Positions 33,196 through 45,332 are shown, numbered from the stretch's first letter. The stretch is DNA of 64,000 nt from Escherichia phage A51.2 (ON286973), one strand, 5' to 3'. The notes: generated by a model not told the origin, from the letters alone. Numbers and translations are program-made.

Positions 33196-33225
33196 CAGAC
33201 AAAAAGAAAGGGGCCTAAGCCCCTT
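33196..33225 (-). terminator. intrinsic terminator for minus-strand small-gene cluster
   Basis: Hairpin AAGGGGC-TTAG-GCCCCTT followed by U-run on minus strand, just 3' of gene 33244..33663. Confidence 0.6.
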
Positions 33226-33243
33226 GATAATTCAGTTAAAAAA

Positions 33244-33663
33244 TTATAATGATTCGTATATTTCATAGATTCGATTTGCCAGGTCGTTACGATAACGAAA
33301 TTTTTCATCACGTTTGATCATCAGATCCTTAAATCCATATTCTTTAAGCACTTCATTAACTTTATAGCGGCATACCTTCATATTATCCTGAGCGTCACCG
33401 ATAAACTTGTTGCTATGATGCATGGCTTTGATCTCTTCCTCCAGGACCAGGGCAACTATGCGGACCGGATCAAGCTGATAGGCGGTAACATCCATGCGGC
33501 ATTGCAAACGGCTTTTTACGTCTGCCACCGGATATACTGCAACCTCTTCCCCGTCAACATTGACAATAATTAGTTTACCATCAATTTCAAAACCTTTCGC
33601 CGCCGGACCGTGACAAAAAGCGTTATCAAAGCTATATGCCGGATTATTAGATTTAATGTTCAT
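33244..33663 (-). CDS. hypothetical protein
   Basis: 139-aa ORF, RBS GAGGT. Confidence 0.5.
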   Translation of the reverse strand: MNIKSNNPAYSFDNAFCHGPAAKGFEIDGKLIIVNVDGEEVAVYPVADVKSRLQCRMDVTAYQLDPVRIVALVLEEEIKAMHHSNKFIGDAQDNMKVCRYKVNEVLKEYGFKDLMIKRDEKFRYRNDLANRIYEIYESL

Positions 33664-33712
33664 GGTGTTTTTACCTCTTAGTTAATTTTCTTACAACTTC
33701 CCTTCAAAAAAG

Positions 33713-33741
33713 AATATAGCAAAACTGCCGATCCTTGTCAA
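33713..33741 (-). promoter_or_regulatory. sigma70-like promoter (TTGACA-17-TATATT)
   Basis: Consensus hexamers on minus strand upstream of 33663 start. Confidence 0.55.
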
Positions 33742-33809
33742 CCAAGGATAGCATAATTTTTTATGTGATCAAGGGGCTTTATTGCCCCCCTGATCGTGCA
33801 ACTTGTTTA

Positions 33810-34073
33810 TTATTTGTTGCTCATCCAGTTTTCCCAGGCTGCCTGATAATCTGCCTCACTGCGGCGGATCTCTTCTTGTTCTTCAAGGCGGATCTCTTCT
33901 TCCAGGTACCCCAGTATATCGGCTTTTTTGGTCTGGCGTAGCATCCAGTCATCTTTTTTGCGGGTAAAGATCTTATAAGCTTTCTCGCAAACCTCTTTTT
34001 TGCTACCTTTCTGGACTTCAAGAACACGATAAGCCATATATTGAACTAGTTTGAGCTGGTCAAGACGTTTCAT
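33810..34073 (-). CDS. hypothetical basic protein
   Basis: Internal ATG with RBS AAGAGG chosen; ORF-track start 34157 would overlap next gene. Confidence 0.4.
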   Translation of the reverse strand: MKRLDQLKLVQYMAYRVLEVQKGSKKEVCEKAYKIFTRKKDDWMLRQTKKADILGYLEEEIRLEEQEEIRRSEADYQAAWENWMSNK

Positions 34074-34134
34074 GATGTTTACCTCTTTATGCGGTTCTGG
34101 TTTGGTGGGCCTTTTGGCCCGTGTCATTATCTTA

Positions 34135-34407
34135 TTACTTATGGCGGCAGAATTCAAGCGTTTTTAATTGATAATCTTCCTCAGCCTGGAGTACTACCGC
34201 CTCGATCATTTCGTTGGCATTGTTAAAGCCATAACCTTTAGCGAACTCATCCGCGCCACCTTCGTGATCATGTTCTGCGTTCATCGCTTCCACAAAATGG
34301 AATTCCAAATTGTTGAGGTAGGGGCTTGATGTTCCGTCCTCTTTTTCGATGAGATCCCAAATAGCATTAAAACGTGATTCGACTTCTTGATTAATCCAGC
34401 TTGACAT
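34135..34407 (-). CDS. hypothetical acidic protein
   Basis: 90-aa ORF, RBS AGGAGAGAGG. Confidence 0.45.
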   Translation of the reverse strand: MSSWINQEVESRFNAIWDLIEKEDGTSSPYLNNLEFHFVEAMNAEHDHEGGADEFAKGYGFNNANEMIEAVVLQAEEDYQLKTLEFCRHK

Positions 34408-34461
34408 AGTGTTTTCCTCTCTCCTGGTTGTTGTGTGGGCACCTTTGCCCCTTCAAGATAA

Positions 34462-34491
34462 ATGTTACCTCACCCCCATGGCAGATGTCAA
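34462..34491 (-). promoter_or_regulatory. promoter (TTGACA-18-TAACAT) followed by GC hairpin and CA-rich leader
   Basis: Hexamers on minus strand; hairpin GGGGCAAAGGTGCCC at 34437-34451. Confidence 0.5.
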
Positions 34492-34516
34492 CGGTTTTTA
34501 TAGTTCTTATATGACA

Positions 34517-34539
34517 GGCAGGCCCGGTGATTGTCTCCC
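34517..34539. repeat. 23-bp repeat GGGAGACAATCACCGGGCCTGCC (minus orientation), identical to 44142-44164
   Basis: Perfect 23/23 inverted match about 9.6 kb apart. Confidence 0.85.
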
Positions 34540-34628
34540 CCCTGTTCCCAAGTGCCGCCCGTTTAATAAGAATAACAAAAGGGGCCGAACAAGTCAACCC
34601 CAAAATCAGTACCAAAAACACTTTTTAT

Positions 34629-34940
34629 TTATACGGTCCGATCATTGGCCTTTGTCCAGGACCTGGCGATCCGTTTCCCGGTCACCTGGAACGGAGACTG
34701 CATTGTGTGTAATGAGTCCAGCGTAAGGGAGGACCGTTTACGGCGTATCTTCAGGATCGCTAACGTATTGTCCATCTCACGGCCAGGCCCTGGGCGGTAT
34801 GGTGTGCCTCCAGCGTTAAGGTTGATGATCTCATGTATTGAGATCCGGCGTTGTTTTGCTTCCGCATCTTTGAAGATAGCCAGCGGAGGCGCTATGCGTT
34901 GCCGATACCAATCTAAAACGGTTGGCGTAATAGCGATCAT
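34629..34940 (-). CDS. hypothetical protein
   Basis: 103-aa ORF. Confidence 0.45.
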   Translation of the reverse strand: MIAITPTVLDWYRQRIAPPLAIFKDAEAKQRRISIHEIINLNAGGTPYRPGPGREMDNTLAILKIRRKRSSLTLDSLHTMQSPFQVTGKRIARSWTKANDRTV

Positions 34941-35128
34941 ATTTTACCCCCTATGTAGTCCGGTCGGTTTTTCTCTGTCATGCGCTTTAGCAATTCTTGC
35001 ATGTTACTTATGGCTTGTAGTGTATCCCCTTCCAGGCTTGAATCAACATAATCAGGATCGTCTATGACCTTTCTATGATTATGATAACGCAGTACTGCTA
35101 ATACCTTTCTAACTTGTTCGATATTCAT
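34937..35128 (-). CDS. hypothetical protein
   Basis: 63-aa ORF, overlapping start/stop with neighbour. Confidence 0.4.
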   Translation of the reverse strand: MNIEQVRKVLAVLRYHNHRKVIDDPDYVDSSLEGDTLQAISNMQELLKRMTEKNRPDYIGGKI

Positions 35129-35140
35129 TTTTACCGCTCT

Positions 35141-35275
35141 TTAAAACAAGGTGCCAACCGTTTCCAATAGATCACTGACCATCAGGACAATACTGATCAG
35201 CACATGCCTAACCATAAGGGGAAAGAGCGCCAGCGATCCCGCCACAATCCCCAAGGTGATGATTATCTTTCTCAT
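35141..35275 (-). CDS. small hydrophobic membrane peptide (44 aa)
   Basis: MRKIIITLGIVAGSLALFPLMV...; below ORF cutoff. Confidence 0.3.
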   Translation of the reverse strand: MRKIIITLGIVAGSLALFPLMVRHVLISIVLMVSDLLETVGTLF

Positions 35276-35277
35276 GG

Positions 35278-35562
35278 TTAACGGTTTACGTAAGCTTTAC
35301 CGTTTACGGTGATGGGCAGATCTTCCAGGTCTGGATCTTCCTTAAGGTCGCGAGCAAGCTCACCGCACCGGATACCCTCGAATCCGTAGTACTCTGTTGT
35401 GCCGTCATTAAAAGTTTTAGCGGCAAGGCATAAGCGATAAGTAACCCCGATTTGATTGACGGCATGAATATCCGTTAGATTAACCTCTTTTGCCAGCTCT
35501 TTAGCCATTACAGGCGCATTAAGTCCAACAACCAGGGCAACCACTGCGATCATCTTTTTCAT
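35278..35562 (-). CDS. secreted/periplasmic small protein with signal peptide
   Basis: MKKMIAVVALVVGLNAPVMA followed by KELAKE (AxA-type cleavage site). Confidence 0.55.
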   Translation of the reverse strand: MKKMIAVVALVVGLNAPVMAKELAKEVNLTDIHAVNQIGVTYRLCLAAKTFNDGTTEYYGFEGIRCGELARDLKEDPDLEDLPITVNGKAYVNR

Positions 35563-35653
35563 TGTGTCTATCCTCTTTCTGCTACGTTTAAGGCGGCGGT
35601 AACCGCCTGTTTATGCTTTGTTGGTTAATTTTCGGGTATCGGTATAAATTAAA

Positions 35654-35878
35654 CTATGCTGTACGCTCAACTATAACAACGGTTTGAGGGATCTCACCTT
35701 CCACCACTATCAAGGCCTTTTTCTGCGTGATGGATATCTTTACCCGTTGCAGCGTGGCGGTGAAGTCTTTCATTTCGTCACGTGGTGTTTTAGTGCAATA
35801 CCAGATCTCAGGCTTGCCGACCTGCAAGCCGCGCAAGAATTCCGTTTTACCTGTTTTATTCGTGATCATTTGATTCAC
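35654..35878 (-). CDS. hypothetical protein
   Basis: 74-aa ORF. Confidence 0.45.
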   Translation of the reverse strand: MNQMITNKTGKTEFLRGLQVGKPEIWYCTKTPRDEMKDFTATLQRVKISITQKKALIVVEGEIPQTVVIVERTA

Positions 35879-35879
35879 C

Positions 35880-35984
35880 TTAACCGATACCGTGGGAAGA
35901 TAGGATCATGTTAGCCATAGTTGCAACCCATCCAACCGATAATGCCAGGCCAACTACTACAACCGTGAAAATTTTCTCTAACAT
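35880..35984 (-). CDS. small hydrophobic membrane peptide (34 aa)
   Basis: RBS GAGGGTAG; MLEKIFTVVVVGLALSVGWVATMANMILSSHGIG. Confidence 0.3.
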   Translation of the reverse strand: MLEKIFTVVVVGLALSVGWVATMANMILSSHGIG

Positions 35985-36061
35985 GATTCTACCCTCATTA
36001 ATGGCGGGAAGTATTCCCGCGCTATGTAGTACACTTTACCAGATTGTTGACTGTTGTCAAA

Positions 36062-36289
36062 CTAATTTTTACAAGGGATCAGTAAACTTCTTGCTACTGC
36101 TTCGCGTAGTCCTTGACTTTTTATCAGATCTATTGTTGCAGGATGGCAAGTAAAAGCCTTTGACCATTTTTGATCCCCTGGTTTACGGGCAAAAATGTAA
36201 ACTTCCCCGTCGATTTCATCCCAACGAGTATTGCTTGTTAGTTTTTTAAGCGCCATGATGATCTCTCTTTTAGTTGTGAGCGGCATCAT
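36062..36289 (-). CDS. hypothetical protein
   Basis: 75-aa ORF. Confidence 0.45.
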   Translation of the reverse strand: MMPLTTKREIIMALKKLTSNTRWDEIDGEVYIFARKPGDQKWSKAFTCHPATIDLIKSQGLREAVARSLLIPCKN

Positions 36290-36307
36290 TGCCGCCCTAC
36301 GAAATAC

Positions 36308-36335
36308 ATTCTACCCGATTTACAATTGTTGTCAA
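36308..36335 (-). promoter_or_regulatory. sigma70-like promoter (TTGACA-16-TAGAAT)
   Basis: Hexamers on minus strand upstream of 36289. Confidence 0.5.
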
Positions 36336-36341
36336 ACTATT

Positions 36342-36521
36342 TTAACGATAATCATCATATGCTTTATTGACCTGGCGAATATAACATTCAAAAGCTAGAT
36401 CAATAGATTTATATTCACGGATATATTCACCATAGGAAACCACATACATTTCTATAGCTTCCTCATATGCGAGGAGAATAGAATCTAAGCCTACGATCTC
36501 AGTCTTTGCAATAATAGCCAT
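36342..36521 (-). CDS. hypothetical protein (59 aa)
   Basis: RBS AAGAGGA; below ORF cutoff. Confidence 0.35.
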   Translation of the reverse strand: MAIIAKTEIVGLDSILLAYEEAIEMYVVSYGEYIREYKSIDLAFECYIRQVNKAYDDYR

Positions 36522-36571
36522 GATTTTTATCCTCTTTGTGGTTGGTGGGGCTTGTTGCCCCTTTGATTTAT

Positions 36572-36600
36572 ATTCTACAGTCTTATAAGGTCATGTCAAC
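36572..36600 (-). promoter_or_regulatory. sigma70-like promoter (TTGACA-17-TAGAAT) plus leader hairpin GGGGCAACAAGCCCC
   Basis: Hexamers on minus strand; hairpin at 36547-36561 then CA-rich leader and RBS. Confidence 0.5.
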
Positions 36601-36829
36601 TATTTTCAAAAAATTTTTCTGCTGTAATATTTTTCCCGGTAGGGTTCGCTACTTTCAAAATTTTATCATGCACTGGACGCCCAAAAGAATAAGCGCCGTA
36701 CACAGTGCACCAATAATCGCCGTCAGGCTGTACTATTACAGCCGCATAGGGTACGCCTTTTTCGTTTTTGCTGACAAAATAGATCACGTTGCCATTAATA
36801 GCCTCGGCGCGTTTAATTTGTTCCATCAT
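36596..36829 (-). CDS. hypothetical protein
   Basis: 77-aa ORF. Confidence 0.45.
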   Translation of the reverse strand: MMEQIKRAEAINGNVIYFVSKNEKGVPYAAVIVQPDGDYWCTVYGAYSFGRPVHDKILKVANPTGKNITAEKFFENS

Positions 36830-36885
36830 GATGATTTGCCTCTCTTTATTTTCATAATTGGGGGGCCTTTTCGGCCCCGCCAGGT

Positions 36886-37170
36886 TTATTTATTGATAGC
36901 GTGCAGCGGGAAAGGTACGCCAGGTTGATAGATAACTTTTACAACCTCATCAGAGCAAAAGAAATTACAGAATTCGCCCTGATAAGCCTCATCCTCTTTT
37001 AATTCTTCATCAACATACTCAAAAAAGTAGTCAACACTTGGATAATCTTGCCCTGGGTTATAGTCAACCATTGTCAGGACCAGTTCAAGATCGTTGCGTA
37101 GGATATGCATACCCGCTTTTAAGTATTTTGCTTCCATTTCTACTACATCGCCAGCGGTAACAATAGCCAT
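36886..37170 (-). CDS. hypothetical acidic protein
   Basis: 94-aa ORF, RBS AGGAG. Confidence 0.45.
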   Translation of the reverse strand: MAIVTAGDVVEMEAKYLKAGMHILRNDLELVLTMVDYNPGQDYPSVDYFFEYVDEELKEDEAYQGEFCNFFCSDEVVKVIYQPGVPFPLHAINK

Positions 37171-37224
37171 GGTTTTAACTCCTATCTATCCGGTTAATGA
37201 TTGGGGGCCGCCCCCCGACACGTC

Positions 37225-37254
37225 CTATTATCCATATTGTAGGGCTTGATGCAA
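37225..37254 (-). promoter_or_regulatory. promoter (TTGCAT-18-TAATAG) with CAATATGGATAATA motif and leader hairpin
   Basis: Minus-strand hexamers; hairpin GGGGGCGGCCCCC at 37203-37215. Confidence 0.45.
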
Positions 37255-37372
37255 GTACTTCTTTAAAAAATTTTTTAAGCGCCTTGGGGGTAGCTGTAAC
37301 GCTAAAATAATAAAGGCCATGCAACCGCATAGCCTTTATGTGATTATATCGCTGCAGGCCCTGCTAGGGGCC

Positions 37373-37723
37373 TTATTTTGCATTCTTGCTTGTATTGCCG
37401 CCACGGTACCAACGTTTGCGGTGAAAATGGTAATAATCACCCTCGGCATTGAACATCAGATGATTTTCAATAACCAGCTTACGAAGGTGGGCCGGATCTT
37501 GTTCCATTCTTGCCAGATTCCGGCTGTTGTTACGTAAGCGGATAAATTCCATATTCAGGCCGTTGATTGCAGCATGGATGTCAAAGTAACCACCTTTGAG
37601 ACGTTCACGCATGGCGTTAAGCTCAACACAATATACAGATTTCTCACAAATCAAGGTATTAGCCAGGGCGCGGACCTGGGCAAGGGGGTTAAGCTCATTA
37701 AGGTAATATAGTTTTACTTTCAT
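37373..37723 (-). CDS. hypothetical protein
   Basis: 116-aa ORF. Confidence 0.45.
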   Translation of the reverse strand: MKVKLYYLNELNPLAQVRALANTLICEKSVYCVELNAMRERLKGGYFDIHAAINGLNMEFIRLRNNSRNLARMEQDPAHLRKLVIENHLMFNAEGDYYHFHRKRWYRGGNTSKNAK

Positions 37724-37740
37724 AAAATCACCTGCTGAAA

Positions 37741-38049
37741 TTAGTTTGAGAAAACATCGTTCACAATAGCGATCACAATGCCGCCCACCTTGTCACGGTC
37801 AACAATGCACAAATCACCATAGATCATGTGGTAGTCTGGATGATCTTTCACAGAATAGTCAATAAGTGTTTTCTTGTCGTCCAGCTTCGTAACTTCCATT
37901 CTCATAACGATATGAGAATCATCAAAGGCATTATTCCGGAAAGTCATAGCCTGACCACCAGGGCACCCGGTGATCTCCACTTCCACACCATCTACGATCT
38001 GACCATCAAAGAAATAAAGATTATTAGCCTGGATAAACATGTCTATCAC
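37741..38049 (-). CDS. hypothetical protein
   Basis: 102-aa ORF, RBS AAGGAG. Confidence 0.45.
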   Translation of the reverse strand: MIDMFIQANNLYFFDGQIVDGVEVEITGCPGGQAMTFRNNAFDDSHIVMRMEVTKLDDKKTLIDYSVKDHPDYHMIYGDLCIVDRDKVGGIVIAIVNDVFSN

Positions 38050-38086
38050 TCCTTGTTAACTGCGTGGTATTTTAACAGGGTTTAAA

Positions 38087-38130
38087 TTTACTTTATCGAT
38101 GGCCCTGAAGTCAAGGCCATCTAAAAATAA
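38087..38130. repeat. 44-bp intergenic repeat copy 1 (contains hairpin GATGGCC..GGCCATC and TTGACT)
   Basis: Near-identical to 41826-41869 and 42448-42491; lies directly 3' of gene 38134..38334. Confidence 0.85.
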
Positions 38131-38133
38131 ATT

Positions 38134-38334
38134 TTACAGGCCTACAATCTCTTTGATTCGTTTAACTGCTGCCTCAGCGCCTTGGGGGTAGAAATTATGA
38201 TAACCAATCACGCGAGTGATACTAATCGCCGTTTGATGATCTTCATAGTCGCCCTTGAAGATTTCTTGACCGTCAATCAGCACGGCAATTTTTTCTTCTT
38301 TTTTGAAGTTAATAACGCGGATATTGTTGCTCAT
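38134..38334 (-). CDS. hypothetical protein
   Basis: 66-aa ORF, RBS GAGGAG. Confidence 0.45.
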   Translation of the reverse strand: MSNNIRVINFKKEEKIAVLIDGQEIFKGDYEDHQTAISITRVIGYHNFYPQGAEAAVKRIKEIVGL

Positions 38335-38391
38335 CTTCTTTCTCCTCTTCGGGCTTTTGTTTGTGTGGTGGGGATGTTTCCCCGTTGATTG

Positions 38392-38421
38392 TTATTATCC
38401 ATATTGCGGACCGGATTGCAA
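38392..38421 (-). promoter_or_regulatory. promoter (TTGCAA-18-TAATAA) with CAATATGGATAATA motif and leader hairpin GGGGAAACATCCCC
   Basis: Same architecture as the 37225 promoter. Confidence 0.45.
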
Positions 38422-38439
38422 CACCCTGAAAGGGAAATT

Positions 38440-38472
38440 TTTTAAAAAGATAGGCCCCCATGATCGGGGGCC
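38440..38472 (-). terminator. intrinsic terminator (GGCCCCCGATCATGGGGGCC plus U-run)
   Basis: Hairpin followed on minus strand by TCTTTTTAAAAA. Confidence 0.55.
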
Positions 38473-38476
38473 GTTC

Positions 38477-38596
38477 TTAGTTACTTACAGCGATAAAGTA
38501 CATCCCTACGCCTAGCAATATTTCAAGGGCGATGATCTCAAGCCATACCATAACCCGGCGCGCCTTATCGGTACGGGGCTTATCCTTGGTTGTCAT
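38477..38596 (-). CDS. small membrane peptide (39 aa)
   Basis: RBS AAGGGGGAG; MTTKDKPRTDKARRVMVWLEIIALEILLGVGMYFIAVSN; speculative. Confidence 0.25.
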   Translation of the reverse strand: MTTKDKPRTDKARRVMVWLEIIALEILLGVGMYFIAVSN

Positions 38597-38838
38597 CGTC
38601 TCCCCCTTTCTTCCTGGTAGTAGTGACGTGGTTTACAATGGCCCCCAGGAGTACCATCACCACGCACATCCCAAGAAAAATTATCTCCGCTGTTGTTCGG
38701 TCCATTGTTATAAAATTCCTCAAGATCAGGCTTGAAAATAAAGCGTTCGTTATTGAATCCATCACGCCAGGCGGCTGGATTCAAATCTTCACTAAAGGGA
38801 TTAATTAACGTGGCATTATTTAAACGGTTGGCCCACAT
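38593..38838 (-). CDS. hypothetical protein
   Basis: Internal ATG with RBS AGAGGA; region has competing ORFs. Confidence 0.3.
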   Translation of the reverse strand: MWANRLNNATLINPFSEDLNPAAWRDGFNNERFIFKPDLEEFYNNGPNNSGDNFSWDVRGDGTPGGHCKPRHYYQEERGRR

Positions 38839-39187
38839 ATTTTCTATTCCTCTCAAATAGGCGATCCGCCTCAGTTAAACATATCTCATGGGCTTGATCT
38901 CTGGTTTTAGCCTCATCGAAAACTTGTTGTGCCAGGCTGCAGCGTAGGGAGACTGGAAGATCACTATAATAGGCGTTGACAAACGTTTGAGCGTCGTACA
39001 GGTCTGAAAATACTTTACCCTTTCTATTATTCCCCTTGTCAACAATTGCAAGGATAACCAATACAATAGTTGCAACCACTCCCAGGAAAATAGATATAAC
39101 AAACCATAGAAAAGCGGATCTACCCATCTTGCCAGCGATCCAGGCGTTGAACAAGGCAACTACTACAGCCAAAATAATAAATTCCAT
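38816..39187 (-). CDS. membrane protein (two TM segments)
   Basis: MEFIILAVVVALFNAWIAG and FLWFVISIFLGVVATIVLVILAIV; RBS AAGAGGT. Confidence 0.5.
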   Translation of the reverse strand: MEFIILAVVVALFNAWIAGKMGRSAFLWFVISIFLGVVATIVLVILAIVDKGNNRKGKVFSDLYDAQTFVNAYYSDLPVSLRCSLAQQVFDEAKTRDQAHEICLTEADRLFERNRKYVGQPFK

Positions 39188-39251
39188 TCTATGTACCTCT
39201 TTTGCAGTTCTGTTTAACAATAAGGCGGCAAATATGCCGCCTGTTACCTGA

Positions 39252-39632
39252 TTAAAAATTATCGCCGTAAATCTTTCCGCTTTCTGCCCACACCACCACG
39301 CGGGGCATGTTATCCCATACGTCTTGTTTTAGATTTAACGCGTGCAATTCTTCTGTGGTGCTCATACCAGGCACGGGCTGATTGTATACTGCAAAACGAC
39401 CACCTGCATAATCATAAGCTAAAGTCAAATCGCACTGAATCATTTTCTTGATCATGGCGTTGAGCATAGCATTAGCCGCATATTGATCACGTTTTAAAGG
39501 CAACTCTTTGATTAGTTTGCGATAGTTTTCAATGTGATCGCACACTGTTTCACGTGGAAGATCTTTCATATCCTCGCGAAAGGTAACCAGGTTAAACATA
39601 ACGGTGTCAATAGCTTTAGTAGTGTTTTTCAT
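39252..39632 (-). CDS. hypothetical protein
   Basis: ATG 39632 after leader hairpin and RBS AAAGAGGA; ORF-track start 39668 reads through the hairpin. Confidence 0.45.
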   Translation of the reverse strand: MKNTTKAIDTVMFNLVTFREDMKDLPRETVCDHIENYRKLIKELPLKRDQYAANAMLNAMIKKMIQCDLTLAYDYAGGRFAVYNQPVPGMSTTEELHALNLKQDVWDNMPRVVVWAESGKIYGDNF

Positions 39633-39683
39633 GATGTTTTCCTCTTTGTTTTGTGTGGGGCAAGTCATCTCGCCCCTTGAGTT

Positions 39684-39713
39684 TTAATATAGCAGGTTTT
39701 TAAATTATTGCAA
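39684..39713 (-). promoter_or_regulatory. promoter (TTGCAA-18-TATTAA) plus leader hairpin GGGGCGAGATGACTTGCCCC
   Basis: Minus-strand hexamers; hairpin 39657-39676. Confidence 0.45.
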
Positions 39714-39721
39714 CACTTTAT

Positions 39722-40345
39722 TTATGAAAAACTCATCTCACCATATTCATCTACATCAAACCGCCAATCATTGGCTTCAATAAGGCCGATCAGGTTTTCG
39801 GTAGTAAACTGTTCAAGATAGGCCTCCTCAAGGTCTACATAAACCTTGCGGGATAGCTCCCGTACCGTCTCGGTGATCAGCTCTTCCAGATCTTCCACTT
39901 TATTTTCTTGTTTTGCGGTCAGATCTAGCCAGGTAGTATCAATATATCCGCTTACAGTGTTTTCATGGCTGTAATGGCTGTACTTGTCGCGTTCAACACT
40001 GGCTGATAGTTCGCCATCGTGCATTGTGCCGAACAAGTGACGAATTGATCGGAACTTGGTCAGGGCCTTGACTTTACGCAAGAATTTCTCTAAGTCTACA
40101 TTTTCAGCACTAATTGACGCGCCATCGCCTTGACACCAAAAGCCGGACCAATGTACATCGGTATCTTCAAGGCCGTACTCTGGAAAAACCTGTTCTTTAT
40201 AGTATTCAATTACACTTTCTGCAAAAAAGTTATCCCCGCTGTGTTCTTCTCTTTCGCGGACCATTTCAATAGCTTTTTCTTTTTGTTCGTCGGTCAGCAC
40301 GTCGAAAGATAAATTGTAACCTGTGGTAATGTTAACGGTGGTCAT
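39722..40345 (-). CDS. hypothetical acidic protein (207 aa)
   Basis: Largest ORF of the small-gene cluster; no recognised motif. Confidence 0.5.
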   Translation of the reverse strand: MTTVNITTGYNLSFDVLTDEQKEKAIEMVREREEHSGDNFFAESVIEYYKEQVFPEYGLEDTDVHWSGFWCQGDGASISAENVDLEKFLRKVKALTKFRSIRHLFGTMHDGELSASVERDKYSHYSHENTVSGYIDTTWLDLTAKQENKVEDLEELITETVRELSRKVYVDLEEAYLEQFTTENLIGLIEANDWRFDVDEYGEMSFS

Positions 40346-40373
40346 GATATTTTCTCCTATTTTCTTTGTTAGT

Positions 40374-40430
40374 GGCGGGAAAACTTCCCGCCTGTGTGTT
40401 TAAGTATACTTATTGAGATTTACTTGTCAA
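40374..40430 (-). promoter_or_regulatory. promoter-hairpin module: TTGACA-16-TATACT-TAAACAC then GGCGGGAAGTTTTCCCGCC
   Basis: One of three near-identical modules (with 42239-42292 and 42918-42974). Confidence 0.55.
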
Positions 40431-40680
40431 CACTATTTTTTAAATTATTGTGGCGTAAAATGTTCAAGATCTCTTCAACGTCATCAACACGGCGGCAATT
40501 TTTAAACGCTACCAGTTGCCCCAGTATTTTAATCACTGGACGGCCTTGCCAGTGCCCTTGGAGAAAGCGAGCTTTAACTTTATCGGTGGAACTATCACGC
40601 CACCAAATGGCCTTGTTGTTGCAGTAGTAAAAATTATTCAGGACAACATCAACTTTATCAAAATTTTTTAATTTACGCAT
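40420..40680 (-). CDS. hypothetical protein
   Basis: 86-aa ORF. Confidence 0.45.
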   Translation of the reverse strand: MRKLKNFDKVDVVLNNFYYCNNKAIWWRDSSTDKVKARFLQGHWQGRPVIKILGQLVAFKNCRRVDDVEEILNILRHNNLKNSVDK

Positions 40681-40880
40681 GGCGTTTACTCCTTTCTCTC
40701 TTTGATGTGGTTAGTATAGCTAACCTGTTTAAGATGTCAAGCTTTAAATAAAATCACTATCAATGATATTTTTAACGCCATAAAACGGCCCTAAGCGATG
40801 TTTTCAGGTTAAAGGGGGCGATTGCATAGGTGGGGCCTTTTTGGCGCTTACAGGGCCAACCGGGGGCGCTATTCGTAGGA

Positions 40881-40912
40881 TAGAAATAAAAAGCCCCGCA
40901 CAATGGCGGGGC
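40881..40912 (-). terminator. intrinsic terminator (GCCCCGCCATTGTGCGGGGC plus U-run)
   Basis: Hairpin followed on minus strand by TTTTTATTTC. Confidence 0.6.
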
Positions 40913-40920
40913 GTTGGTTG

Positions 40921-41118
40921 TTATTTGCCTTTGTGGCGGTATCGTTCCGCCTGTCGTTCACGTTCCAAAAGCAGGCCCGGTAATTTGCGATCATAATGAT
41001 TCCGCCAGATCTTCCCAAATCTTTTTGGCTTATTCAGTTTATTGTTGCGCTGGCGGCGTTCCGGCAGCTCTTCGGAAGCATGAGATCGCTTTACAATCTT
41101 CTCAAAATTAATCTTCAT
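40921..41118 (-). CDS. hypothetical basic protein
   Basis: ATG 41118 after AAGGGGGG; Arg/Lys-rich. Confidence 0.4.
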   Translation of the reverse strand: MKINFEKIVKRSHASEELPERRQRNNKLNKPKRFGKIWRNHYDRKLPGLLLERERQAERYRHKGK

Positions 41119-41461
41119 ATATTCCCCCCTTGCTAACTTCAATATTGGCCTGAATAGCCCGGATACGGCGCTTTATAACTTCCTGATCTGTGTGATCGTA
41201 TCCCCAAAAGTCTACGATTTTTGCGCCTCCAGCCTTTAGGCGGTATAGTGTTTCTTGCATCTTGTAAGCCGGGATCGGTCGCGGTGTTACCTGGTCGCCC
41301 TTCTCATTCTTGTACTTGATAATATAGTCTTCATTGTCGTTGAATACCCAAAACGGGTATTCTGTAAGGGCGTTGCTATCTTTTTCGTTTTTAGATTGGA
41401 TCTTGTTTACAATTAAAGCCGTAGCAATAGCGCCAATAATAAAACTTGCCCCGCTGATCAT
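41108..41461 (-). CDS. membrane-anchored protein (N-terminal TM)
   Basis: ATG 41461 after AAAGGAGA; MISGASFIIGAIATALIV. Confidence 0.45.
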   Translation of the reverse strand: MISGASFIIGAIATALIVNKIQSKNEKDSNALTEYPFWVFNDNEDYIIKYKNEKGDQVTPRPIPAYKMQETLYRLKAGGAKIVDFWGYDHTDQEVIKRRIRAIQANIEVSKGGIYED

Positions 41462-41536
41462 GTACTTTCTCCTTTCATTGTATTGATAAACTATCTTTAT
41501 AGATGGCCCTGCTACCAGGACCACCGAAAAAACAGC

Positions 41537-41782
41537 TTATTTGACGATACCGACAAAACAGATCCCGCCTTCCCCTATATAGGCAATATCGGTAATTTTA
41601 TAATTTGTCAAGATCCGCGTGTTCAGATCATTAATAAAATCGGTCATCGCGTTGGTGTAGTTGTCTTCCGTGTCTAAGGCATAATCCCAGGTGTAAACCT
41701 TTTTACGTCCGAAGCCTTTTACCATGATACGGGCGCTTTTGGTGTTGGTAGGGGCATAATATTTGGTGATTAGTGCTGCCAT
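41537..41782 (-). CDS. hypothetical protein
   Basis: 81-aa ORF, RBS AGAGGAG. Confidence 0.45.
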   Translation of the reverse strand: MAALITKYYAPTNTKSARIMVKGFGRKKVYTWDYALDTEDNYTNAMTDFINDLNTRILTNYKITDIAYIGEGGICFVGIVK

Positions 41783-41825
41783 GGTTTTAACTCCTCTGAA
41801 TTAGTTCAGTGTTAACAGTATAAAG

Positions 41826-41869
41826 TTTACTTTATTGATGGCCCTGGAGTCAAGGCCATCTAAAAATAA
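41826..41869. repeat. 44-bp intergenic repeat copy 2
   Basis: TTTACTTTATTGATGGCCCTGGAGTCAAGGCCATCTAAAAATAA, directly 3' of gene 41872..42213. Confidence 0.85.
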
Positions 41870-41871
41870 TC

Positions 41872-42213
41872 TTACTCGTTTTCTTCCAGCTCCGCAAGCT
41901 CTTCTTTTGCTTCTTCTAACTCTGTCTGTAGTTCCTGGTATTCTTCATCTTCCTCAATATCCAGGCTGTCGATGTAGTCGCTAAATCCGCAGCGGTAAGC
42001 GATAGGATCTAGCTCCTTGAGGATACGCGACGGAAGAAAAGAAATGTTTCCGATCATAATTTCGCCGTAGATCTCGTCTAACCATTCATCATAGTTTTCG
42101 TCGTACTTGTCCTCGTCGATTTCAAAGTTATCGATCTTGTTCTCAAGGTCTGCGATCTGTTTTTTCAGCGCGGCGATCTGCATAGCTTTTTCTGCGGCGG
42201 TCATAGTAGTCAT
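41872..42213 (-). CDS. hypothetical acidic coiled-coil protein
   Basis: 113-aa ORF. Confidence 0.45.
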   Translation of the reverse strand: MTTMTAAEKAMQIAALKKQIADLENKIDNFEIDEDKYDENYDEWLDEIYGEIMIGNISFLPSRILKELDPIAYRCGFSDYIDSLDIEEDEEYQELQTELEEAKEELAELEENE

Positions 42214-42238
42214 GGTGTTTTCTCCTTTTGTGTGCTCT

Positions 42239-42292
42239 GGGAAGTTTTCCCGTTTACGTGTTTAAGTATATCGATCTAAGTTAGTTTGTCAA
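42239..42292 (-). promoter_or_regulatory. promoter-hairpin module: TTGACA-16-TATACT-TAAACAC then GGGAAAACTTCCC
   Basis: Same architecture as 40374-40430. Confidence 0.55.
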
Positions 42293-42447
42293 TTAAAAAT
42301 TTAAGAAAAATTTTGCAAAACTGTTAGCGCTACTCATTAACATTTGCGCCAGGATGTAACCGACAACGCAAACGATAATAGTTACCTTTGTGTATTGGCG
42401 TGTAGTGCTCATCTTAAAGCCCCCTTTTTTCGCTTAGTTGAGATTAG

Positions 42448-42491
42448 TTTACTTTATTGATGGCCCTGAAGTCAAGGCCATCTAAAAATAA
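42448..42491. repeat. 44-bp intergenic repeat copy 3
   Basis: TTTACTTTATTGATGGCCCTGAAGTCAAGGCCATCTAAAAATAA, directly 3' of gene 42494..42898. Confidence 0.85.
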
Positions 42492-42493
42492 AC

Positions 42494-42898
42494 TTAGTAA
42501 GTTTTCAGTACTTTACCGTCCAACCTGTCAAGCTGGATCTCGATAGCTGCAGAAAACCTATTGTAAACCACATCGCCCATAGAATCCAACCAGTCTATGA
42601 TATTATACACTTGCTCTTTGTTCTTGCAGGTCCGGATCCGTTTCATGATGTAAGCCGGATCAATATTGGTACTCTCGTTGGTGTTCCCCTGTACCTGGTT
42701 TGCCGTATTAGTTACATCTTTAATGGCCTTTACCACCACCTGGAATGGCTTTAAGGTGCCTTTTGCGTTCATCTCACGCGCTTTTGCGGCGCGGTTGTTA
42801 TATGTTACACAACGGCGGCAAATGTTGATCAAATGCATGTCAATAATTTTTTCATCGTTTGCCAACTCGTTCATGATGCGGCGTACGTTCTTATTCAT
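42494..42898 (-). CDS. hypothetical protein
   Basis: 134-aa ORF downstream of promoter-hairpin module. Confidence 0.45.
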   Translation of the reverse strand: MNKNVRRIMNELANDEKIIDMHLINICRRCVTYNNRAAKAREMNAKGTLKPFQVVVKAIKDVTNTANQVQGNTNESTNIDPAYIMKRIRTCKNKEQVYNIIDWLDSMGDVVYNRFSAAIEIQLDRLDGKVLKTY

Positions 42899-42917
42899 GA
42901 TCTTTTTCCTTTGTGCT

Positions 42918-42974
42918 GGCGGGAAACATTCCCGCCTTTTGTGTCTAGTTTACTTGAATTTTGCAGCGTGTCAA
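42918..42974 (-). promoter_or_regulatory. promoter-hairpin module: TTGACA-16-TAAACT then GGCGGGAATGTTTCCCGCC
   Basis: Same architecture as 40374-40430. Confidence 0.55.
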
Positions 42975-42986
42975 TAATTTTTTTTT

Positions 42987-43385
42987 TTATTCGTGGGCAC
43001 ATGTTACAATGTGCTTTTTATAGCCTAGGTGGTCAGCAAGTGCTGACAAAAACTCTTCTTCGTAGATCCAGCCGTTGGCAGTGATCCCCATAGCATTTAA
43101 TGCGCTCTCAAGTGCTGCGTTAGCTTTATCATAACCGTGACCGCTCGCCTTGCCGCCAGTATAGCCGTACTTATTGTTCTTGTTGTCGTGTATCCAAAAA
43201 ACGCAGTAGTAAGTGTTCCCGCTGTCGGCGGCATAATACCGGATCTCAGCTACTTCGTGCAAATTATTGTCATCGTCCAGGCCCACCAGATTATAAGCCT
43301 TGTAAAATCCACGATCACGGCGGCAGTTCTTGACATCAGAAAAAGAAAAGTCTGCATTATCAAAATTAAAGGTAGTGGTTTTCAT
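42987..43385 (-). CDS. hypothetical protein
   Basis: 132-aa ORF. Confidence 0.45.
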   Translation of the reverse strand: MKTTTFNFDNADFSFSDVKNCRRDRGFYKAYNLVGLDDDNNLHEVAEIRYYAADSGNTYYCVFWIHDNKNNKYGYTGGKASGHGYDKANAALESALNAMGITANGWIYEEEFLSALADHLGYKKHIVTCAHE

Positions 43386-43449
43386 GATTTTATCCTCTTA
43401 GTGTCTTTTGTGCTTTTAGTGTATTTGGTGTCGGACTATATGTCAATAC

Positions 43450-43647
43450 TTATTTTTTATTAAACCAGTGGTTGATCTGACCTTTTGTCAGGGCGCAACG
43501 ATTAAGCTGTTGCAGGGTATAGCTATGACCGCGACGAAATTTATAAAGGCCTTGCCCGTTGTTGATGGTTACATCCACCCGGCAAATCACTTGATTGGTG
43601 ACCACCTGGCGAGTGTTGCGACGTACTTTGATCCCGTATGCGTTCAT
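43450..43647 (-). CDS. hypothetical basic protein
   Basis: ATG 43647 after AAGAGGA; ORF-track start 43725 probably an extension. Confidence 0.4.
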   Translation of the reverse strand: MNAYGIKVRRNTRQVVTNQVICRVDVTINNGQGLYKFRRGHSYTLQQLNRCALTKGQINHWFNKK

Positions 43648-43943
43648 AAATTTATCCTCTTTACTGGTTAGTGCGGTGTTGTTCACCTTGTAGGGTAATA
43701 ATACCATGATTAACCTTGTTGTCAACGACTATTTTAAATTATTTTTATGATAGAATCCACCTGCCGCCGCCCTGCCAGGTTAACCATCATTTTTTCGTAC
43801 TCTTCTTTATGTTCCAACGCTCCCGCCATGGCCTTTTCAACCAGGGCGATAGCCTCAGCGTCATTAATAGCTACATTTTCCAGGCTGGCCCCGCCAGGTT
43901 GCAGCGGTTAGCGCATCAGGTTAGAAAAATTTTTTGAAAAGTG

Positions 43944-43972
43944 TTGACAGCGGCCCCGCCAGGTGGCACAAT
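43944..43972 (+). promoter_or_regulatory. possible promoter (TTGACA-17-CACAAT) reading into GC-rich element
   Basis: Good -35, moderate -10; no ORF downstream. Confidence 0.3.
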
Positions 43973-44141
43973 ATACCTATCGAAAGGACGGCAGGCACCG
44001 GTGACGGGGGAGACAACCACCGGGGATGGGCGCTGCATAAAATGAGAACGGTTATCATTATCATTTAAAAATTTATGCAAAAAATCCTTGCTTTCTTTGT
44101 CCTGTGTGATACTATAATAACAAGCCGGGGCAACAGGGGCC

Positions 44142-44164
44142 GGGAGACAATCACCGGGCCTGCC
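44142..44164. repeat. 23-bp repeat GGGAGACAATCACCGGGCCTGCC (plus orientation); variant copy at 44008-44025
   Basis: Identical to reverse complement of 34517-34539; preceded by TATAAT at 44114. Confidence 0.85.
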
Positions 44165-44397
44165 CGTTATTCTGCAAACGAGAATGATTATCATTCAAAA
44201 TTCTAAATGAGAACTCCTCGCATTTAATAAATTTAATTAGCACGCTAATTACCCTCCGTAACAATTTCCTATAAAACAGTATCCCATAAAATATTCCCGT
44301 ATAGAAATTTTAAAAATCCATTTCTGAAAACGAAAAATCGATTTCGTCCCCAAAAATTTTAGGCCAAGAGCCGGAGCGATTTCCAGAAAATCCGATT

Positions 44398-44488
44398 CAG
44401 AAAACGAAAAACAGATCGAGTACTGAGAAATTTATCGAGAAAAATTTTCAGAAAATTCAATCTTTGAAACGAAAAACAGATCGAGTAC
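44398..44488. repeat. direct repeats: ACGAAAAACAGATCGAGTAC x2 at 65-bp period, degenerate third copy at 44326
   Basis: Perfect 20-bp copies at 44404-44423 and 44469-44488 in AT-rich non-coding DNA. Confidence 0.8.
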
Positions 44489-44799
44489 CTGGAAAGCTGC
44501 ACCGCAACTTCAAGATAGTGGTTGGATTATTGCTATAAAAGGTCAAGGGTAAGTGGAGGAAGTTCTAGTAGCGAGATGTAAGCATGTGCGGGAAATCTAT
44601 AATGGTGGTCTGGAATATGGTGCAAACGGTAGGATGAGTGATTCAGCTTGTCGCGCCTACTCTGAAAAATCCATTTTAGTTTTCGATCCATTTTCTGATT
44701 TTCTAAGGATTTTAAAATATCCTGGCAGGTAAAATATCAAAAGGAGGAAATCCATTTTAGAAATCCTCCTGATCTCTGGCAACCTGATAACTTAAAATA

Positions 44800-45132
44800 T
44801 CAGGCTCCCAGTGTGTTCTTTCCTTTGTACAACCTTAAGGGTATAGTTTTTGTAACAGTCCATCTCCCCAGCCCTTCCCAGTTCCAGTTGTAGGCATGGT
44901 ACCCGGTTACGCATGCACTGCTAGAGTGGTCATAGGCATAAGAGAACGCTATACGCACCAAATGGAACCAGTCTTTCCACGGTTGTGGTCCGTAAGCTTT
45001 TCTCCAACACCGACACAAACTAAATGTCTCAAGAATAGGCAGGATAACAAATCCATACACCGCCACCAGAATAGCCAGCGCAATGATTGTCAGGAATACA
45101 TACCCTGCAGTTGAAACGATGATCTCTGTCAT
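44800..45132 (-). CDS. membrane protein (N-terminal TM segments)
   Basis: VFLTIIALAILVAVYGFVILPIL. Confidence 0.45.
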   Translation of the reverse strand: MTEIIVSTAGYVFLTIIALAILVAVYGFVILPILETFSLCRCWRKAYGPQPWKDWFHLVRIAFSYAYDHSSSACVTGYHAYNWNWEGLGRWTVTKTIPLRLYKGKNTLGA

Positions 45133-45332
45133 TTGTCGTCCCCTTTCTTACGGATATAGATGTGAGAACCTGCCTGTATATAAATTTCTCGACCATCTTC
45201 TGCGAAGATGTGGAATACACGGTCACCTTCGTACTCAATACGAGATATCTTCATAATGGTCTTTCCACCTGGGATACGGATCTCGTCCCCCACAGCGATG
45301 TTCCATGCAGATTTAAGCTTAAACATCTGCAC
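45129..45332 (-). CDS. hypothetical protein
   Basis: 67-aa ORF. Confidence 0.4.
   Translation of the reverse strand: MQMFKLKSAWNIAVGDEIRIPGGKTIMKISRIEYEGDRVFHIFAEDGREIYIQAGSHIYIRKKGDDK

Follow-up and report, generated by a model that had tools for sequence, protein, structure and literature searches.

A 23-bp repeat flanking the small early genes of an rV5-like coliphage as the possible core of a promoter, hairpin and Fur-box-like cassette

The window analysed here, a 64-kb stretch of DNA, comes from an rV5-like (Vequintavirus) coliphage and contains a block of small genes bounded by a perfect 23-bp inverted repeat. What does such a repeat mark: a segment that inverts, a binding site for a protein, or a part of a structured transcript? 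The original prediction regarded an operator or an inversion site as more likely than an RNA structure. We favour another answer, to which we assign a probability of about one half: the repeat is the conserved core (apical loop and 3' arm) of a regulatory cassette consisting of a promoter, a hairpin and Fur boxes, with copies that point outward from both edges of the early block. The features of the locus are collected in Table 1.

Table 1 Features at the edges of the early-gene block and at the terminal repeat (window coordinates).
Feature	Position	Strand	Description
Start of the terminal repeat (= EdH4 position 1)	31727-31883	+	four palindromes of the same family at 31736, 31754, 31851 and 31869
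Second promoter-like site	34462-34491	-	TTGACA-18-TAACAT, between unit C and the next gene (34135-34407, phrog_7287)
Hairpin unit C ('34-type')	34511-34562	-	ACGGGCGGCACUUGGGAACAGGGGGGAGACAAUCACCGGGCCUGCCUGUCAU, read 34562 to 34511; sense to genes; contains the exact 23-mer
Predicted composite terminator/promoter feeding unit C	34569-34601	-	terminator 34601-34581; promoter 34597-34569
Small early ORF block	34629-43725	-	about 27-30 ORFs; many strong sigma70-like promoters, composite terminator/promoter cassettes
Predicted promoter P1 (copy A)	43923-43972	+	UP element and TTGACA-17-CACAAT (TG); antisense to all neighbouring genes
Hairpin unit A (diverged copy)	43991-44036	+	core 44008-44025
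Palindrome(s) after unit A	44040-44068	+	Fur-box-like, AAATGAGAACGGTTATCATTATCATTT
Predicted promoter P2 (copy B)	44088-44115	+	TTGCTT-16-TACTAT, extended -10 TG, A/T-rich upstream; antisense to neighbouring genes; read directly from the sequence
Hairpin unit B ('44-type')	44120-44172	+	contains the exact 23-mer
Palindromes after unit B	44176-44225	+	Fur-box-like AACGAGAATGATTATCATTC (15-mer core 44179-44193) and degenerate AAATGAGAACTCCTCGCATTT (44205-44225)
Three 65-74-bp direct repeats	44305-44495	+	carry ACAGATCGAGTAC; A/T-rich non-coding stretch downstream of the cassette

The repeat copies and their setting

The exact 23-mer GGGAGACAATCACCGGGCCTGCC was confirmed at 44142-44164 (plus strand) and, as its reverse complement, at 34517-34539 (minus strand), and the pair can be extended to 29 nt at 93% (34511-34539 and 44142-44170). 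The window had no further match with up to three mismatches, and none arose in 100 dinucleotide shuffles. The diverged copy GGGAGACAACCACCGGG was likewise found on the plus strand, its end being also given as 44024, and the 13-nt core GGAGACAANCACC occurred with at most one mismatch at just three sites, which are copies A, B and C. When the motif was searched genome-wide in the complete related genome EdH4 (136,031 bp; nhmmer, E ≤ 10), only three equivalent copies were obtained.

A promoter-like element lies just upstream of all three copies, as had been claimed; that of copy C is TTGACT-17-TATTCT with a TG. A minus-strand early promoter at 36594-36620 shares 93% identity with the UP/-35 part of P1. 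The element preceding unit C is composite: a stem-loop, GGGGTTGACTTGTTCGGCCCC followed by TTTTGTT, holds the -35 (TTGACT) inside its loop, and an extended -10 (TGtTATTCT) directly follows the T-tract, an architecture also present in EdH4, POP15 and ukendt. A sigma70-like promoter was found at each of the 31 distinct units compared, with a mean promoter score of 9.1 against 6.8 at random positions, and its -10 ends 33-39 nt before the 3' end of the loop (45 nt for copy A). The repeat is non-random and promoter-proximal and is likely to be a recognition element; this part of the original prediction stands, whereas its inversion reading and its dismissal of a hairpin do not.

The 9.6-kb small-gene block between the copies was also confirmed, with all of its ORFs on the minus strand. 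Two repeat families within it, D1 and D3, are stem-loops with a -35 in the loop and a -10 after the T-tract. The 31 proteins lying under the match are small and are all annotated as hypothetical.

The copies each cover the loop and the 3' arm of a predicted hairpin that is imperfect, GC-rich and about 45-50 nt long; its 5' arm lies upstream of the 23-mer. The earlier statement that no obvious hairpin forms is correct only for the isolated 23-mer; with the 5' flank included, an imperfect hairpin is predicted with AGACAAYCA at its tip. The consensus loop is A-rich, (G)AGACAAnCA, and is closed by GG/CC or CCGG/CCGG. In unit B, the predicted stems are CCGG/CCGG (inner), CAGG/CCUG (middle) and CGGG/CCCG (outer) around the loop GAGACAAUCA. 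The hairpin would begin close to the predicted transcription start (about +1 to +5). Rfam 15 at gathering thresholds gave no match in the window and six related loci. We found no earlier description of the cassette.

Two opposed units, 7.3-9.7 kb apart, flank co-oriented small genes in six genera of two subfamilies, namely Vequintavirus, Certrevirus, Seunavirus, Mydovirus, Phapecoctavirus, and Justusliebigvirus. Both units always point outward and one of them is antisense to the genes; homologues of unit C occupy the same relative position in all six genera, and a third, tandem copy is present in Vequintavirus.

These comparisons bear on whether the copies are crossover sites, with the 9.6-kb block inverted in a fraction of the population. 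The presence of a perfect 23-bp inverted repeat at both ends of a discrete block invites this explanation, which the relatives nevertheless leave extremely improbable. The 12-kb region is collinear in related records (39 cover at least 80% of it in one same-strand place), and many records read across both junctions in the parental arrangement, these being consensus assemblies in which minor subpopulations are invisible. In all six genera the block genes and their flanking genes are oriented alike, so that the inverted state would set about 30 genes against their surroundings. No recombinase domain was detected by Pfam and PHROGs in the four largest block ORFs or in the genes adjoining the units. 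The 23-mer lacks internal dyad symmetry, and its two sites are not kept identical: the copies differ within the 23-mer in isim (copy C) and L129 (copy B), and the loops of the two copies are strongly different in Seunavirus and Mydovirus. These data do not support an inversion switch.

The position of the units exactly at both block edges in all genera would also suit a transcription boundary, in which the hairpins, alone or with Fur bound alongside, keep polymerases from entering or leaving the early block, the link to promoters being secondary. The ΦTE record annotates a 'terminator' within its 44-type hairpin on the gene-sense strand, CUUGUUAUUAU follows hairpin B on that strand, and unit C comes directly after a canonical terminator. 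However, the stems of the units are followed by the tails GUUAUUCUGC and UGUCAUAUAAG rather than by a U-tract; a proper U-tract is missing from both strands of every unit, and a terminator scan called none of them. Furthermore, the orientation of a unit follows its promoter and not the direction of the genes, and terminators need no conserved loop sequence. We consider a boundary function decidedly improbable.

Comparative evidence for a possible RNA hairpin

Does the conserved core act as RNA or as duplex DNA? On folding, most units placed the conserved loop at their tip, with the outer stem starting at the predicted 5' end. The loop measures 9, 10 or 11 nt across the units while the flanking CCGG arms are kept, a pattern more in keeping with a structure than with a site in double-stranded DNA. 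When three genera were used to build a covariance model, it recovered units of the other genera, and unit B scored 33.4 bits (E 4e-9) against a model built from other genera. In the covariance-model alignment, which is biased toward structure because it was fitted to the model and contains related sequences, 89.6% of the cells pair against 39-53% in slid controls, both sides have changed in 4 of 12 pairs, and the covariation score is 0.185 against 0.118 ± 0.014 in shuffles (0/500). G·U or U·G combinations outnumber A·C or C·A by 21 to 8, indicating the promoter-sense strand. These comparative data lend moderate support to an RNA structure, because they combine covariation, changes in loop length with intact stems, and an excess of G·U over A·C.

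Other results were less favourable to folding. The folding energies were scarcely better than those of shuffled sequences (mean z -0.8; z of -1.7 to -2.5 for single sequences), and folding was nearly as good on the antisense strand of the units. RNAalifold on a plain MAFFT alignment gave no consensus hairpin, since the stem registers differ between clades, and the helices consist mostly of conserved GC pairs and thus carry little information. The strong conservation of the loop and its rigid distance to the first box are also compatible with a nucleoprotein complex at the DNA level.

Such a complex would form if the 13-nt core GGAGACAAnCACC, which falls in the initially transcribed region (about +20 to +35), were bound as a duplex by a phage or host protein, which may cooperate with Fur to switch the promoters on or off, the flanking complementarity being incidental GC-rich sequence. 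No stretch of the unit is better conserved than the core, with its invariant or near-invariant columns; it lies at rigid distances from the promoter and from the first Fur box (27 nt in the latter case); no more than 2-3 promoters per genome have it, which would suit a dedicated regulator; and the weak hairpin thermodynamics point the same way. Yet the core tolerates insertions of 1-2 nt and heavy rewriting (AGUACAAAACA, AGGAAAGCCA, AAGAUAAUCA) with CCGG…CCGG or an equivalent complementarity kept, and pairing is maintained by two-sided changes (GGTGG…CCAGG in isim, GGGGGG…CCGGG in the window). Together with the strand preference of the G·U excess, and with no candidate binding protein identified, these features make an operator within the core unlikely.

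Fur-box-like palindromes and a possible mechanism

For the sequence adjoining the core, the idea of a protein-binding operator fared better, as rigidly spaced Fur-box-like palindromes that had escaped the original prediction follow the repeat; for the core itself it is the rival explanation just described. A palindrome of this type lies within 90 nt of 26 of the 31 distinct units, compared with 3.6% of random windows, and the five units without a box are gene-sense units of Vequintavirus and of Phapecoctavirus and Justusliebigvirus. The first box starts at +27 from the loop in 22 units and at +25 in three, and further boxes follow at +56 and +85, giving a phasing of 29 bp. Cassettes carry one to five boxes, often in such phased arrays, and each locus contains 8-13 boxes against about 0.2 in shuffles.

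By sequence, the palindromes resemble Fur operators: they match the 19-bp / 7-1-7 consensus as well as known operators. A 19-nt identity was found with the E. coli ryhB promoter, directly downstream of which RyhB was confirmed by Rfam, at a BLAST E-value of 4 in a very redundant 28-Gb database. Furthermore, with a matrix derived from the phage sites alone, which had been collected using a pattern that included the Fur consensus, the Fur-regulated promoters fepB|entC, fepA|fes, and fepD|entS made up the top 4 across 50 kb of K-12. Fur may therefore bind these boxes, as judged from their resemblance to its operators.

What counts against the cassette favoured here is that its boxes lie downstream of the promoter, an atypical place for an operator that represses by occlusion.

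In the promoter, hairpin and Fur-box cassette that we favour, the sigma70-type promoter, whose -10 is often extended, comes first, followed by a GC-rich hairpin and then by Fur-box-like palindromes. Host RNA polymerase would start at the cassette promoters early in infection and fire outward, from one cassette with the genes toward the nearby genome end, and from the other antisense into a non-coding, iteron-bearing region. The nascent RNA would fold into a 5'-terminal hairpin, so both outward transcripts would share a structure and a loop, and this hairpin could be what one factor recognises on both RNAs, could stabilise their 5' ends, or both. Fur-Fe on boxes a few bases past the hairpin would then decide whether the polymerase reads through, in which case outward transcription would be coupled to the iron status of the host. 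The sequences themselves establish the anatomy of the cassette, its copy number, its fixed geometry, its conservation in six genera and the likeness of its boxes to Fur operators, whereas transcription from the promoters, folding of the RNA, binding of Fur and all functional consequences are inferred.

A bolder extension seems doubtful, if worth stating: a cis-acting phage RNA hairpin, not described before, may mark or load onto the transcribing polymerase (put-like) or recruit a phage factor, and, with phased Fur arrays at the block edges and the genome terminus, may make early or boundary transcription of a virulent phage iron-responsive. Alternatively, the arrays might titrate Fur as a sponge, so that iron uptake is derepressed and supplies the iron-dependent ribonucleotide reductases of the phage.

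The iteron-bearing region raises a further possibility, namely that G-rich structured transcripts from P1 and P2 open or prime the adjoining A/T-rich DNA as a replication origin, with the hairpin, as RNA or as displaced single-stranded DNA, acting as a signal for priming or processing and the second copy serving the other direction. The primary origin of T7 and the R-loop origins of T4 combine promoters with an unwinding region. Here, tandem strong promoters, opposed to every neighbouring gene, point into a non-coding A/T-rich stretch of about 400 bp, which has direct repeats and GATC-containing iterons conserved across genera (in related genera, CGATCGAGAAC iterons lie at the position equivalent to the repeats in Table 1); the predicted transcripts begin with G clusters, and a family-A DNA polymerase and a primase-helicase are among the phage's gene products. 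What makes this origin improbable is that a promoter and genes, not iterons, lie downstream of the 34-kb copy, that the downstream repeats differ in Phapecoctavirus, and that the rV5 authors reported no informative skew signal (PMC3606486).

Relation to known systems

The invertible segments of the Hin/Gin/Cin systems are alike in having short inverted repeats around a multi-kb segment, but at the phage locus we found no recombinase, no enhancer and no alternative orientation in relatives, and identity of the sites is not required. The Fur operators of Enterobacterales, such as those of the ryhB, fepA-fes, and fepB-entC promoters, share the 7-1-7 / 19-bp architecture; the phage boxes differ in lying downstream of the promoter rather than over it and in forming 29-bp-phased arrays of up to 4-5, which are also clustered at the genome terminus.

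The PeSLs of T4-like phages are composite promoter-terminator cassettes between small early ORFs, with many dispersed copies (PMC2839356, PMC4122927). They resemble the promoter feeding unit C and the D1/D3 families of the block, in which a stem-loop is fused to a promoter. The 23-mer hairpin, in contrast, lies downstream of its promoter without a U-tract, has 2-3 copies per genome, and is conserved in sequence across subfamilies. With 5'-terminal stabilising stem-loops of the ompA type, known from bacterial and phage mRNAs, it would share a stem a few nucleotides from the 5' end, judging by the predicted start. Stabilising hairpins prolong mRNA half-life and need no conserved loop sequence.

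The remaining comparison is with nutL/nutR of lambda and putL/putR of HK022, cis-acting RNA elements that lie close behind divergent early promoters. A nut site consists of boxA and boxB, and a put site of two adjacent stem-loops of about 65-70 nt. In the phage cassettes a single hairpin is predicted instead of the two of put; on reading the sequence, no boxA-like CGCTCTTTA was visible in the cassette leaders, and no N-like protein was identified. Moreover, one transcript is antisense to all nearby genes, the phage is virulent, and Fur boxes follow the element. The likeness lies in two near-identical, opposed elements shortly downstream of early promoters, which flank a regulatory or early region and would place the same RNA hairpin on both divergent transcripts. 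The function of nut and put depends on a hairpin with a conserved loop, and their RNA renders RNA polymerase resistant to downstream terminators.

Repeat copies at the borders of the small-gene block

Vequintavirus (rV5-like) coliphages, among them phiWec191 and EdH4, shared 93-95% identity with the region. An exact-match search with GGGAGACAATCACCGGGCCTGCC found one copy on each strand, and no additional site with up to three mismatches was found in the 64-kb window, nor any match in 100 shuffles. The exact 23-bp inverted repeat pair of the original prediction is thus confirmed, far beyond chance. The similarity between the copies reached 29 nt at 93% identity, and a 13-nt core, GGAGACAANCACC, occurred only at the two exact copies (B and C) and the diverged copy (A). 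The complete EdH4 genome contained three copies of the unit, i.e., the hairpin carrying the 23-mer or its homologue, and no others. BLAST detected no counterpart of the hairpin among 5,426 E. coli genomes, indicating that it is not host-derived.

The 9.6 kb between the repeats contained numerous terminators and strong sigma70-like promoters, along with about 30 small hypothetical ORFs. In the EdH4 annotation, all genes from the left end to ~38 kb are on one strand, corresponding to the minus strand of the window. The terminal redundancies of EdH4 are 458 bp (PMC6563267). Window position ~31727 aligned with the first base of EdH4, which places the 34.5-kb copy ~2.8 kb and the 44.1-kb copies ~12.4 kb from the physical genome end; both this terminus and the beginning of the direct terminal repeat (458 bp in the EdH4 publication) fall inside the window. 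The ~1.5 kb after the terminus (31727-33244) is non-coding, with GTTTACRC-type repeats and long inverted repeats (e.g., ~32390-32560). A tRNA/tmRNA scan found nothing. In addition, about 20 GenBank "Campylobacter phage" records (host C. jejuni) that matched 33500-45500 and 43880-44320 were rV5-like coliphage sequences, one of which, MG065659 "C5", was 100% identical to the window over 441 nt. Their C. jejuni host label looks doubtful.

The predicted promoters of copies A and B are P1 and P2, respectively. The UP element and -35 of P1 were 93% identical to those of a minus-strand early promoter in the block. At copy C, the loop of the terminator holds the -35 (TTGACT), and the T-tract is followed by the -10 (TGtTATTCT). 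The D1 and D3 repeat families of the block have a similar layout, with -35 TTGACT inside the loop of a terminator stem-loop, then the T-tract and the -10; these cassettes may mediate shuffling of small early genes.

Direct repeats were also observed downstream of the cassette: three 65-74-bp repeats with ACAGATCGAGTAC in the window, multiple CGATCGAGAAC(CC) repeats with GATC inside in POP15 and KNP2, and a different ~70-bp repeat in Phapecoctavirus. Their architecture is origin-like or protein-array-like. P1 and P2 face this A/T-rich, iteron-bearing stretch, which speaks for a replication-origin or priming element; we consider such a role for the cassette quite improbable.

Features of the window and of related-phage loci (L002, L005-L009; L005 and L009 carry Phapecoctavirus/Justusliebigvirus units)
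Feature	Location	Strand	Remark
Copy A	window 44008-44024	+	diverged; in ~600-bp non-coding gap (43.93-44.53 kb), antisense to every neighbouring gene
Copy B	window 44142-44164	+	exact; same gap and sense as copy A
Copy C	window 34517-34539	-	exact; sense to genes; promoter embedded in terminator of preceding gene
P1	ahead of copy A	+	TTGACA-17-CACAAT with TG
P2	ahead of copy B	+	TTGCTT-16-TACTAT with TG
Fur-box-like palindromes	window 44040-44068, 44176-44225, 31736-31883		last: corresponds to first 160 bp of EdH4 terminal repeat
Fur-box-like palindromes	L002 1278-1350; L005 700-801, 11092-12041; L006 1177-1286, 10913-11738		
Fur-box-like palindromes	L007 1211-1254; L008 12614-12657, 2025-2783		
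~95-nt sequence	L007 1400-1500(-); L008 12390-12490(+); L002 1480-1580(-); L005 950-1050(-)		also ~10 metagenomic loci
Gp30.8/Gp30.7-homologue genes	L002 11226-11597; L005 10458-10841; L008 4573-4932; L007 11008-11373		
RyhB-like gene-sense hairpin	L005 10283-10310; L009 12724-12750	+	
D1 family	window 38085-38135, 41489-41539, 41824-41874, 42446-42496	-	repeated composite cassettes
D3 family	window 40360-40411, 42222-42273, 42904-42955	-	repeated composite cassettes
Direct repeats/iterons	window 44305-44495; L002 1060-1190(-); L008 12750-12930		downstream of cassette

Conservation of the units across genera

The corresponding regions of POP15 and ΦTE (Certrevirus), GAP31 (Seunavirus), KNP2 (Mydovirus), ukendt (Phapecoctavirus), and alia (Justusliebigvirus) were compared, together with a handful of metagenomic contigs. 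In distant relatives, sensitive BLAST found conservation only over the ~60-90 bp that surround each copy, and the conserved stretch was intergenic and unannotated in every case. Two scans of the viral collection, run with GAGAATGATTATCATT and CGCCACCCCACGGCG, hit unrelated contigs for the most part and left about 15 usable rV5-like loci; an nhmmer profile found 40 copies, 31 of them distinct. Every genus had two opposed units, both oriented outward and 7.3-9.7 kb apart, around a co-oriented small-gene block. A sigma70-like promoter preceded all 31 units, with 33-39 nt (45 nt in copy A) between the end of the -10 and the 3' end of the loop. From this distance, the hairpin would span about +1 to +50 of the transcript, counted from the predicted start. 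A role of the units as terminators or insulators appears very improbable.

The original prediction also proposed inversion of the block between the two copies. However, the relatives are collinear, the block genes run in the same direction as those on either side, a search for a recombinase domain in the four largest block ORFs and the genes adjoining the units found none, and the two copies differ from each other in other phages; inversion sites are hence scarcely credible. What stood of the original prediction is a promoter-proximal recognition element.

The first gene after the gene-sense unit was, in four genera, a homologue of T4 early Gp30.8 (PF06019/phrog_1507) or Gp30.7 (PF06919), and in Vequintavirus an unrelated small protein gene (phrog_7287). 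Because the downstream genes vary in this way, we rejected a role of this unit as a leader dedicated to a single conserved gene. The pseudo-ToxI locus of ΦTE (106.7 kb) was also considered and found to be unrelated to the cassette locus. For these phages, sigma70-like early promoters with UP elements and a "non-coding" box have been described, and nothing further (PMC3606486, PMC7344957); our literature search on transcriptomes, Fur boxes, and non-coding elements of these groups found only the sigma70-like early promoters.

Predicted hairpin structure and Fur-box-like palindromes

When the 5' flank was included, each copy was predicted to fold into an imperfect hairpin whose tip carries AGACAAYCA. 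The original prediction, which saw no obvious hairpin, had therefore noticed the loop and the 3' arm only. The folding energy was weak (mean z -0.8) and similar for the sense and antisense strands, and RNAalifold derived no consensus hairpin from a plain MAFFT alignment of 27 units, since their stems sit in different registers; the plain alignment was replaced by a covariance-model alignment. Most units had a common layout: an outer stem starts at the predicted 5' end, an internal loop follows, and the conserved loop is closed by a short inner stem. The outer stems were clade-specific (e.g., AUAGCGGG/CCCGCUAU, AUGGCG/CGUCAU, and ACGGGCGG/CCUGCCUGU), and the CCGG…CCGG arms persisted despite a loop length that varied from 9 to 11 nt and extensive rewriting of the loop in some clades. 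A covariance model trained on Certre-, Seuna-, and Mydovirus units recovered those of Vequinta- and Phapecoctavirus. In the covariance-model alignment, where such counts are by construction biased toward the model, 89.6% of the pairing cells were paired versus 39-53% in slid controls, two-sided changes were found at 4 of 12 pairs, and the covariation score exceeded all 500 shuffles. Furthermore, G·U/U·G outnumbered A·C/C·A (21 versus 8), which favours the promoter-sense strand. These results moderately support a hairpin that exists as an RNA structure, and we regard an operator recognized in duplex DNA as unlikely.

No Rfam match was obtained at gathering thresholds for the window and six related loci. 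Homology of the unit to RyhB, to which GGAAGACCC in the Phapecoctavirus copy had pointed, was rejected, since no RF00057 match was found in the phage loci and the likeness is limited to one clade. The gene-sense hairpin of Phapecocta-/Justusliebigvirus, AAUCACCGGAAGACCCCGC, also resembles the first stem-loop of RyhB, GAUCAGGAAGACCCUCGC, probably by coincidence for the same two reasons.

Outside Vequintavirus, all genera had a conserved sequence of ~95 nt behind the upstream one of the tandem promoters, P1: ACAGRAGAG..CGCCACCCCACGGCGAAAAGGCGGGGCUAAC..ACCRGG-loop-CCWGGU..GGAAGGUGRAUCGCCGG. This sequence contains a hairpin whose loop varies, with a compensatory G-C/A-U pair (7 versus 6 sequences), and shows pseudoknot-like complementarity (CGCC/GGCG and CCCC/GGGG). 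It matched no Rfam family and is hence a candidate new phage ncRNA. In the window, hairpin copy A occupies its place.

Directly 3' of the hairpin, we found palindromes with the consensus AAATGAGAATCATTCTCATTT. A palindrome was present within 90 nt in 26 of 31 units versus 3.6% of random windows; the first box started 27 nt past the loop in 22 units and 25 nt past it in three, and further boxes at +56 and +85 gave a 29-bp phase. The enrichment in these loci was 40- to 60-fold, with a collecting pattern that included the Fur consensus. In every genus, the palindromes were also clustered in the non-coding gap near the terminus. The sole E. coli match to the first box was in the yhhY-yhhX intergenic region, where TGCAAATGAGAATGATTAT, the Fur operator of ryhB, lies between the -35 and the start of ryhB (RyhB confirmed by Rfam, 83 bits); 19 nt are common to the phage palindromes and this ryhB promoter box. 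When a weight matrix built from phage sites only was run over 50 kb of K-12 (9.6% intergenic), the top four sites were fepB|entC, fepA|fes, fepB|entC, and fepD|entS. Based on the ryhB match and this ranking, the palindromes are Fur-box-like and candidate Fur sites. With the four-box array of ukendt as query, BLAST matches in E. coli did not rise above chance level. By analogy with ryhB, a third promoter under the boxes was considered and dropped, as no convincing -35 was seen. Since the phage encodes NrdAB and NrdDG, one possibility is that the arrays serve in iron sensing or as a Fur sponge.

Proposed role and comparison with known systems

As the best-supported reading, we propose a duplicated cassette, made up of a promoter, a 5' hairpin, and Fur boxes, that would fire outward from both block borders. 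Its anatomy, distribution, and geometry are direct observations. The hairpin would act in RNA, giving both outward transcripts the same 5' structure and loop as a handle for a factor and/or a stabiliser, and Fur bound to the adjacent boxes would gate read-through. For this mechanism as a whole, in which we infer transcription, folding, Fur binding, and function, we estimate a probability of about 0.5.

Phages of the rV5-like and phi92-like groups (Vequintavirinae, Stephanstirmvirinae) are frequent candidates for therapy and biocontrol and, to our knowledge, their non-coding DNA is essentially unannotated. The analysis defines a conserved cassette at both borders of the host-takeover gene block, one predicted promoter of which is directed, in antisense, into a conserved region of non-coding DNA with iterons. 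Of most interest, and most open to testing, is the connection of the cassette with Fur-box arrays: if Fur binds, a virulent phage would clearly be tying its early transcription, or the availability of Fur, to the iron status of the host. A new structured leader RNA would also join the few known phage cis-acting RNAs. The finding is a modest one if the cassette is no more than a hairpin close to a promoter, with AT-rich palindromes as decoration.

What these phages carry appears to be a conserved, hitherto undescribed regulatory cassette. Its arrangement is closest to nutL/nutR of lambda or putL/putR of HK022, in which identical hairpin elements follow divergent early promoters. It departs from the features that define these systems, being without boxA, with one hairpin instead of two, and with one of its predicted transcripts antisense. 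The promoter of unit C and other block repeats resemble the PeSL cassettes, composite promoter/terminator cassettes of T4-like phages (PMC4122927), whereas the 23-mer hairpin is a three-copy element different from PeSL.
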